Below are positions 11,083-11,679 of a stretch of 40,859 nucleotides of DNA, piece after piece; positions within the stretch are counted from its first letter, which is position 1; every line of letters begins with the position of its first letter. The stretch lies in the IMG/VR virus record IMGVR_UViG_2597489870_000008; one strand, written 5' to 3'. Under the pieces are notes generated by a model. The model was not told the origin of the DNA and made no database searches. It saw only the letters and a list, made by a program, of their open reading frames with translations. The position numbers and the translations under genes were made by a program. The stretch comes from a virus (Duplodnaviria > Heunggongvirae > Uroviricota > Caudoviricetes).

Positions 11083-11114
11083 AATAAAAACCGCGTGTAA
11101 ACGCGGTTTTTTAT
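11083..11114. terminator. Bidirectional intrinsic terminator (AAAAACCGCGT-gtaa-ACGCGGTTTTTT)
   Basis: 6-bp GC stem with a 4-nt loop flanked by an A-run and a T-run; lies immediately downstream of the moron gene on the minus strand. Confidence 0.6.
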
Positions 11115-11126
11115 TAGGTAATAAAA

Positions 11127-11615
11127 TTAACGATCATAATCAACATTATGAGTATCTATTCTACATGATGAATAAGTAATTCCGCTTTCACCACTAATAT
11201 TTACGCCAGCCTTTACCTTCCCTGTTTTCGTAACATCAACAAAGAATTGCCCTCTTGGCATTTTAAATGCAAAAGAGAAACCAATAATTTCCGAGTCAAA
11301 GTTATTTTCATCCTCACTAATTGGTACAATAAAAGTCAATGGTGCAGATTGTGAGTTATTTTCAAAATTAAAAGCACCAATGCTTTTATTAAACTCGTAG
11401 GATGCTTTTTTTATTAAAAGAGTTCCACTTGCCGACTTTGCTGGGCATATTACAGACAGTCTATTTATTCCCTCTACATCTAGATCTATATTCTTATCCG
11501 CTGAAGTTTTAACGTTATCTATAAAGTATGTAGCAAGCTGCTTTTCCGTTACTGGCTTCGCAAAGGAGTTTAATGGCAGTCCTACAGCCAACAACAATAT
11601 AAACATTTTCTTCAT
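11127..11615 (-). CDS. Moron: secreted or periplasmic protein of unknown function (162 aa, N-terminal signal peptide)
   Basis: AT-rich ORF inserted between the tape measure and DNA circulation genes; start at the MKKMFILLLAVGLPLNSFA Met with an AGGAG RBS; own terminator downstream; no family recognised. Confidence 0.65.
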   Translation of the reverse strand: MKKMFILLLAVGLPLNSFAKPVTEKQLATYFIDNVKTSADKNIDLDVEGINRLSVICPAKSASGTLLIKKASYEFNKSIGAFNFENNSQSAPLTFIVPISEDENNFDSEIIGFSFAFKMPRGQFFVDVTKTGKVKAGVNISGESGITYSSCRIDTHNVDYDR

Positions 11616-11679
11616 ATTCTCTCCTACATTCAGCACAAACTTTACCACTCAATAACCCTACTTGATTAAAGTAGTTATA

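Follow-up and report, generated by a model that had tools for sequence, protein, structure and literature searches.

At the junction between the tail tape-measure gene and the DNA-circulation gene, tailed phages related to SfV possess a slot that is empty in some relatives and filled with one of several small genes in others. The gene considered here occupies this slot in a 40,859-nucleotide stretch of viral DNA (IMG/VR record IMGVR_UViG_2597489870_000008; hereafter the window), which is 100% identical to a prophage adjoining dusA in the enterotoxigenic Escherichia coli (ETEC) strain H10407. The prophage is of the SfV-like type, with a tail of the SfV/SfI/SfII/SfIV/phiP27/ST64B group. As the original prediction had stated, an open reading frame (ORF) of 162 aa lies between the two tail genes; it starts with ATG on the minus strand, which had been left unspecified, and its product is listed in RefSeq as a 'hypothetical protein' (WP_000738066.1). 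There is little doubt that this gene is dispensable, exchangeable cargo, and its product is very probably exported to the periplasm by a Sec-type route. The best explanation overall, put forward tentatively, is a moron-type gene whose product would act as a periplasmic binding or decoy protein protecting the lysogen.

Comparison with related tail clusters identifies the gene as horizontally exchanged cargo rather than a component of the tail. Flanking tail DNA was matched in 1091 of 5426 complete E. coli genomes, meaning that the junction is present in ~20% of them, while the cargo gene was found in 101 (~2%). When the genomes were sorted by the state of the junction, using categories that overlap and are not mutually exclusive, 664 had an empty junction (549 with a GC-rich hairpin and 115 without) as compared to the 101 with the gene of the window; a further 11 carried a 48%-identical relative, P0007, and 178 an unrelated 176-aa membrane-anchored cargo (L004 type). 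The viable phages SfV, phiP27, ST64B and YeP1, all of which have the same tail, have an empty junction of 15-50 bp, as do the UTI89 prophage (60 bp) and the closest relatives without the gene, W619 and KK19-02 (24 bp each). Relative to the latter two, homology ends inside codons 1 to ~16 of the DNA-circulation gene and in the final few codons of the tape-measure gene, with ~670 bp in the window in place of ~95 bp in the empty alleles. Since these breaks fall inside both flanking genes, a cassette of ~670 bp was evidently exchanged by recombination in the flanks. The gene is thus not conserved as a tail component in homologous phages, being absent from SfV, phiP27, ST64B, YeP1 and most related prophages.

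Where the slot is occupied, its content varies: at least five unrelated cargo types were found. Apart from the gene of the window, these include the 176-aa membrane-anchored protein (PHROG 5485; L004 4088-4618, minus strand), a 170-aa signal-peptide protein in phage SKA5 (PHROG 8976; L013 2034-2546; GC 0.31), a bacterial PH-domain (bPH_1) protein in Edwardsiella phage EPP-1 (L016 2181-2558) and a HIRAN-domain protein with a hydrophobic C-terminal tail and a weak match to the candidate defence model PDC-M03B (L009 2387-2974). All four of these alternative cargoes are AT-rich relative to their flanks, and three of the cargo types—the family of the window, L004 and SKA5—are targeted to the envelope.

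The same compositional contrast is seen in the window. The cargo gene has a GC content of 0.342 (0.264 at third codon positions, GC3) vs 0.52-0.59 in the surrounding tail genes (tape-measure 0.517, DNA-circulation 0.555, hub 0.587), and only 0.24% of 489-nt intervals are equally AT-rich, making it the deepest GC trough of the 40.9 kb and upholding the AT-richness first noted for it. The gene hence combines extra DNA relative to close relatives with a GC content unlike that of its surroundings, two of the traits by which Juhala et al. (2000; quoted in PMC3594210) define a moron.

The cargo protein belongs over its full length to PHROG 5586 (expectation value (E) 7e-85; residues 1-161 aligned to profile positions 1-161 of 161), a PHROG of unknown function, and has no match in Pfam, NCBIfam or PADLOC. 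The family is small: an exhaustive HMMER search of 1.8 billion representatives returned 16 proteins, and a word-indexed search recovered the same small set, with E. coli, Shigella and Pantoea as hosts. Related loci were gathered with a 5-sequence alignment, and three Firmicutes matches (L020-L022; 25-28% identity over 80 aa) were set aside as probably spurious. In family members that are 25-48% identical, the signal peptide, a pair of cysteines (C57 and C151) and the motif F-x-F-K-M-P-x-G-Q-F-F-V have been retained. Among deposited phage genomes, that of Escherichia phage vB_EcoM-720R4 alone has the cargo gene; carriers among E. coli come from pigs, poultry, cattle, rivers and humans and follow no pathotype pattern. 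All E. coli matches listed are full length except for one copy, in strain PEC122, that is interrupted by IS1.

Members of PHROG 5586 reside in two distinct genomic homes. The first is the tape-measure/DNA-circulation slot of progressively diverged tails, where P0007, the L050 member, P0013, P0014 and P0019 are found, the last of these behind a HIRAN-domain gene. The divergence of these slot-resident copies (36-48% identity) roughly parallels that of the adjacent tail genes, which indicates that the association with the slot is old and does not reflect a recent one-off acquisition. The horizontal acquisition suggested by the original prediction thus stands as far as exchange is concerned, but the gene is not simply a recent arrival. 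The second home is found in phage-plasmid-like elements (P0018, P0020 and P0021), in the region of their partition, toxin-antitoxin and repressor genes, and the copies there are not AT-rich (GC 0.49-0.55). P0020 and P0021 are stand-alone units with a common palindromic upstream element and their own terminators. This AT-rich element, TTAAATAAATATTTAAT, lies directly 5′ of the start codon (L008 2860-2918; L051 680-739) in copies that are bracketed by hairpins, and may serve as an operator or promoter for independent expression.

Two further observations concern the fate and mobility of the gene. IS1 has inserted into it in at least two independent loci, truncating a P0007-type copy in L048 (5258-5984) and splitting the window-type region of E. 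coli PEC122 (hits H15 and H103). Moreover, within the 18.5 kb inspected of a 204-kb conjugative plasmid from the avian pathogenic E. coli (APEC) strain E18005 (L010; NZ_CP126947.1, 177075-195563), the cargo gene is found together with the tail and head genes and the integrase of this prophage. Searching a plasmid collection with P0020 returned solely the prophage copy on pEND_Eco 18005.

Export of the cargo protein can be predicted from its N-terminus, MKKMFILLLAVGLPLNSFA followed by KPV, in which two lysines, a hydrophobic core of 11 residues (Kyte-Doolittle value 2.05 over 15 residues) and small residues at positions -3 and -1 (S-F-A) are typical of a type-I signal peptide. Homologs at 25-48% identity retain both the signal peptide and the A-before-K junction, and the predicted structure has low confidence for residues 1-20, with an ordered domain starting at around residue 24. 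The signal peptide proposed originally is therefore borne out by sequence features and by recurrence in distant homologs, although the product should be described as exported to the periplasm, where it is presumably soluble, rather than as 'secreted'. A cleavable signal peptide also fits poorly with tail assembly in the cytoplasm. The family may hold lipoproteins as well as soluble periplasmic forms: in the 48%-identical P0007-type homolog (L006 4825-4890; L044 5995-6060), the N-terminus MTVAILTSC followed by C fits a lipobox (L-T-S-C), whereas the protein of the window has no cysteine at this position.

AlphaFold 2 (AF2) reached a mean predicted local distance difference test (pLDDT) score of only 39 with a 3-sequence alignment; a 10-sequence alignment, which was used instead, gave a pLDDT of 85.9 and a predicted template modelling (pTM) score of 0.79. 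In this model, a disordered signal peptide is followed by a helix (residues 24-41) and eight β-strands, making an eight-stranded β-barrel the likely fold of the mature protein, with a disulfide probably linking C57 and C151. The search for structure and remote homology thus yielded a confident model of a small barrel but no specific structural or sequence relative.

Within its tail operon, the cargo gene stands out by its rate of change. Among 23 window-type loci representing 11 alleles, the ratio of nonsynonymous to synonymous polymorphism per site (pN/pS) was 0.70 for the cargo gene vs 0.08 for the tape-measure, 0.15 for the DNA-circulation and 0.06 for the hub gene at similar pS, and segregating nonsynonymous and synonymous changes numbered 17:8 vs 61:161 in the flanks (Fisher p = 1.3e-4). 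None of the 23 loci contained a premature stop. The independent P0007 lineage behaves alike (pN/pS 0.53 vs 0.13-0.14; 18:9 vs 61:166; p = 8e-5). Nonsynonymous change in the cargo protein is thus four to ten times faster than in its neighbours while the ORF stays intact, a pattern compatible either with an arms-race surface carried by a conserved core or simply with weak constraint.

Taken together, these features are compatible with the following scenario. The gene would be a moron-type accessory gene in the variable tape-measure/DNA-circulation slot of an SfV-like temperate myovirus. Its product would be exported by Sec, cleaved after Ala19 and released into the periplasm as a small domain of one helix and an eight-stranded β-barrel, probably closed by the C57-C151 bond. 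Rather than taking part in tail building, it would bind or act as a decoy and so shield the phage-carrying cell from an attack that crosses the envelope, with the delivery of superinfecting phage genomes as its most probable target, and the rapid amino-acid change would reflect an arms race with this target. In this view it would correspond, as a soluble protein of the periplasm, to gp15 of HK97 or to Sp of T4. The functional model is T4 Sp (spackle), which acts in the periplasm as a superinfection-exclusion protein and inhibits the tail lysozyme gp5, although T4 Sp is helical and stems from a lytic phage. The parallel—a phage-encoded, periplasmic protein acting against incoming phage—is an analogy only, and the PDB sequence profile search revealed no similarity between the two (T4 Sp is mentioned in PMC11436027). 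Argued from such analogies, an exclusion or protective function is conceivable but on the unlikely side. More speculative still, the members of PHROG 5586 might be superinfection-exclusion proteins of a new class, soluble in the periplasm and fast-evolving, located at an undescribed cargo hotspot around a resident intra-operon terminator; they would bind the tail tip, tape-measure protein or tail lysin of an incoming phage during its passage through the periplasm.

Several results weigh against a protective role in the lysogen. No match to known exclusion, defence or inhibitor families was obtained by homology or profile searches: Foldseek found nothing with E<0.01 in PDB or BFVD, the PDB sequence profile search nothing under E 0.5, and PADLOC-DB v2 no family for 10 members at E<=1. 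The barrel fold itself is generic, with avidins, lipocalins and outer-membrane protein (OMP) barrels scoring alike. The alternative slot cargoes provide no functional clue either, as none has a known function (PHROGs of unknown function, bPH_1, and HIRAN with its weak PDC-M03B match). Since the overall pN/pS lies below 1 and is compatible with weak constraint alone, positive selection is not demonstrated. Finally, a scan of positions 10900-11900 for consensus σ70 promoters yielded 0 sites vs 2.7 expected in shuffles, and a relaxed scan gave no site less than 130 nt from the cargo start, leaving a weak extended -10 candidate (TGgTAAAGT) as the sole promoter-like feature upstream. Reading in the direction of the late tail operon, the gene begins 64 nt past the tape-measure stop codon, so its expression may be confined to lytic growth. 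Given the lack of a σ70-like promoter in these scans and a homolog, at L052, that starts just 16 nt past the tape-measure stop, expression in lysogens is not established. The initial description as lysogenic-conversion cargo hence holds for the dispensable, exchanged nature of the gene, but finds no support in a σ70-like promoter upstream, though a promoter of non-consensus type is possible.

The hairpin downstream of the gene is not specific to the cargo. Located inside the exchanged segment, 16 nt past the cargo stop, it consists of an 11-bp stem and a U-run (folding free energy -20.4 kcal/mol; z = -4.72 vs shuffles); a consensus terminator scan of positions 10900-11900 missed it, probably owing to pairing between its A-run and the U-run. 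A GC hairpin with a T-run precedes the ribosome-binding site (RBS) of the DNA-circulation gene at every cargo-bearing locus with downstream sequence to examine; its apparent lack at L052 turned out to be an artefact of the gene caller choosing an early start for the downstream gene. A similar hairpin with a T-run is, however, also present immediately ahead of this RBS at the empty junctions of SfV (L012 2535-2579), the UTI89 prophage (L005 4025-4084), ST64B (L015 2556-2588) and YeP1 (L017 2590-2639), and only junctions of 15-24 bp are without it. The occurrence of such hairpins at many empty junctions suggests that a hairpin is a backbone feature of the tail operon and that the one in the window does not clearly belong to the cargo. 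Of the 'own terminator' in the original prediction, there consequently remains a strong hairpin and U-run after the gene, the ownership of which is doubtful.

That a terminator should reside within an essential late operon poses a small puzzle of regulation in its own right. The prophage encodes a Q-like antitermination protein, which would let late transcription run past the junction hairpin. Because inserts upstream of the hairpin do not drive the baseplate genes, the junction is a safe landing pad for cargo. Candidate reasons for retaining the hairpin are dosage attenuation of the baseplate genes or dependence on Q antitermination.

The rival explanations, in descending order of likelihood, are a lytic accessory factor, a host-interaction factor or hydrolase inhibitor, a near-neutral passenger, an outer-membrane barrel and a tail component. 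According to the first, which we consider unlikely, the gene is transcribed only within the tail operon and its product reaches the periplasm of the infected cell late in the lytic cycle, where it could exclude secondary infection, mask receptors to save progeny from debris, or tune lysis. The operon strand, the short distance to the tape-measure stop, the strong RBS and the outcome of the σ70 scans all agree with this, as does the L052 homolog, whose spacing leaves no space for an intergenic promoter; lying upstream of the junction hairpin, the gene would furthermore be on the tape-measure-containing transcript. On the other hand, AT-rich inserts often have non-consensus promoters, the protein matches no known late-acting periplasmic family, and the phage-plasmid relatives are stand-alone genes in a maintenance and immunity region, equipped with an upstream hairpin, the AT-rich palindrome and a terminator of their own.

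Distinctly improbable is a host-interaction or virulence factor directed at enzymes of the host or of competitors, e.g. a periplasmic inhibitor of lysozyme or peptidoglycan hydrolases akin to MliC, PliC or PhiA. The predicted model does share with MliC/PliC the form of an exported eight-stranded antiparallel β-barrel, and periplasmic inhibitor and immunity barrels appear in the structural comparison as well (PhiA 7.0, PliC 6.5, MliC 6.3, BtaiB 6.4). Yet this likeness is generic, being no greater than that to avidins, lipocalins and MoaF-like barrels, and the cargo family has an extra N-terminal helix. Membership in the MliC/PliC family (PF09864) was rejected, as none of 10 members matched at E<=10 and hhalign against E. 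coli MliC gave a probability of 1.3% with the signal peptides alone aligned; the PDB sequence profile search was empty here, too. The varied origin of the E. coli carriers, with no pathotype pattern, also speaks against such a factor.

Slightly less probable again is a neutral passenger, i.e. a functionless ORF kept through its linkage to the tail genes. This would account for a pN/pS of 0.5-0.7, far above that of the flanks, for occasional destruction by IS1 and for the absence of the gene from most related prophages. It is countered by the intact reading frames—full length in the listed E. coli matches bar PEC122, free of premature stops in the 23 loci—and by conservation of the signal peptide, both cysteines and the 12-residue motif down to 25% identity. 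In addition, ten sequences sufficed for a confident fold, and the family has been maintained in two separate genomic settings.

An outer-membrane eight-stranded barrel of the Lom/Ail/OmpX/PagP type, acting as a surface virulence or adhesion moron, is very improbable. No OMP family of Pfam matched at E<=10, and the C-termini are polar or charged and lack an aromatic β-signal; moreover, the predicted strands are short (5-10 residues), both cysteines of the pair have been conserved, and the hydrophobic face does not vary. A role in tail structure or assembly might be suggested by the location of the gene in the tail operon and by its family recurring at this slot in several tail lineages, but is for practical purposes refuted by the absence of the gene from SfV, phiP27, ST64B, YeP1 and most prophages with near-identical tails, by the cleavable signal peptide, by unrelated replacements in some loci and by phage-plasmid copies outside tail operons.

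One of the closest known systems to the exported cargo proposed here is gp15 of HK97, a moron in the tail operon beside the tape-measure gene that blocks genome injection in a tail-dependent manner (Juhala et al. 2000, Cumby et al. 2012; reviewed in PMC3594210). Both are small extra tail-operon genes of odd composition next to the tape-measure gene, are absent from related phages and encode products destined for the cell envelope. However, gp15 belongs to the YebO family of small inner-membrane proteins, and its promoter and its expression from the prophage have been demonstrated, whereas the cargo protein is predicted to be a cleaved, soluble periplasmic β-barrel. P2-like phages have variable moron positions in their tail cluster, such as position 2 between G and FI, which holds neaT in CFT073 (PMC3573123). 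As in the present case, a fixed slot in the tail cluster receives differing, un-ameliorated cargo across prophages and is sometimes empty; unlike P2, the slot described here belongs to another phage group, sits at the tape-measure/DNA-circulation junction of SfV-like phages, usually with a resident hairpin, and its cargo in the window is co-oriented with the operon while neaT is oriented opposite. In the SfV group, the moron described to date sits between Q and the lysis genes (SfIV; PMC3851460). No paper found mentions WP_000738066 or phage vB_EcoM-720R4, and none describes the tape-measure/DNA-circulation junction as a cargo or moron site. The gene can thus be regarded as an uncharacterised representative of a familiar kind of phage cargo.

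Prophage cargo is a main source of strain differences in phage resistance and virulence and is mostly uncharacterised, and the carriers of this gene include the reference ETEC strain H10407. If the protein were indeed a periplasmic exclusion factor, a soluble periplasmic mechanism would join a field in which membrane proteins and receptor blockers prevail, with relevance for host-range prediction in phage therapy. Experiments would be worthwhile on the cargo hotspot, with the terminator residing in it, and on the family of fast-evolving exported barrels.

The features of the locus are collected in Table 1. Its wider surroundings comprise sheath, tube, chaperone and Mu gp44-47-like baseplate genes.

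Table 1. Positions in the window of the cargo gene, its predicted parts and its flanks
Feature	Position	Strand	Basis
Cargo coding sequence (CDS), 162 aa, WP_000738066.1, PHROG 5586	11127..11615	-	ORF, RefSeq CDS, PHROG match
Signal peptide, codons 1-19 (MKKMFILLLAVGLPLNSFA), predicted signal peptidase I cut before K20	11559..11615	-	sequence features, homologs, AF2
Mature domain, ~143 aa: predicted helix 24-41 and eight-stranded β-barrel; C57, C151, F-x-F-K-M-P-x-G-Q-F-F-V	11127..11558	-	
Shine-Dalgarno sequence AGGAGAG; GGAG core 5 nt from ATG	11619..11625	-	read from sequence
Weak candidate extended -10 (TGgTAAAGT)	11639..11647	-	spotted by eye
GC hairpin and U-run, intrinsic-terminator-like, between cargo stop and DNA-circulation RBS	11082..11111	-	folding; stem 11086-11096 / 11101-11111
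RBS GAGGTG of the DNA-circulation gene, immediately 3′ of the hairpin	11076..11081	-	sequence
Exchanged cassette vs closest empty alleles; spans DNA-circulation codons 1-~16 and last ~5 tape-measure codons	11023..11695	.	W619, KK19-02 alignment
Upstream neighbour: tail tape-measure protein, 633 aa	11680..13581	-	PF10145, PHROG 28
Downstream neighbour: DNA-circulation / baseplate-hub protein, 457 aa	9697..11070	-	PF07157, PHROG 184

Elsewhere in the window, a second AT-rich island (23865-24185, minus strand) lies between the HNH/terminase and lysis genes and contains a 106-aa ORF of the GrlR family (PF16518 with E 6.6e-6, slightly short of the Pfam cutoff; 'GrlR family regulatory protein' in RefSeq), which represents another moron candidate. 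An additional AT-rich island at the early-gene end (38002-40859, minus strand) encodes a 344-aa protein with a CoiA nuclease-like domain (38485-39519) and a SocA/Panacea antitoxin-domain ORF (40287-40859), the N-terminus of which is possibly longer than listed. The latter overlaps by 4 nt a 139-aa ORF without a Pfam match (39871-40290), and the two are likely to form a Panacea-type toxin-antitoxin or defence pair. Lastly, the region at ~3219-5300 (mapped from L001 12720-14780) carries a serine recombinase, Gin/Cin-like by annotation, flanked by oppositely oriented fragments of tail-fibre and fibre-assembly genes, and is an invertible host-range segment as in the tail fibre switches of Mu- and P1-like phages.
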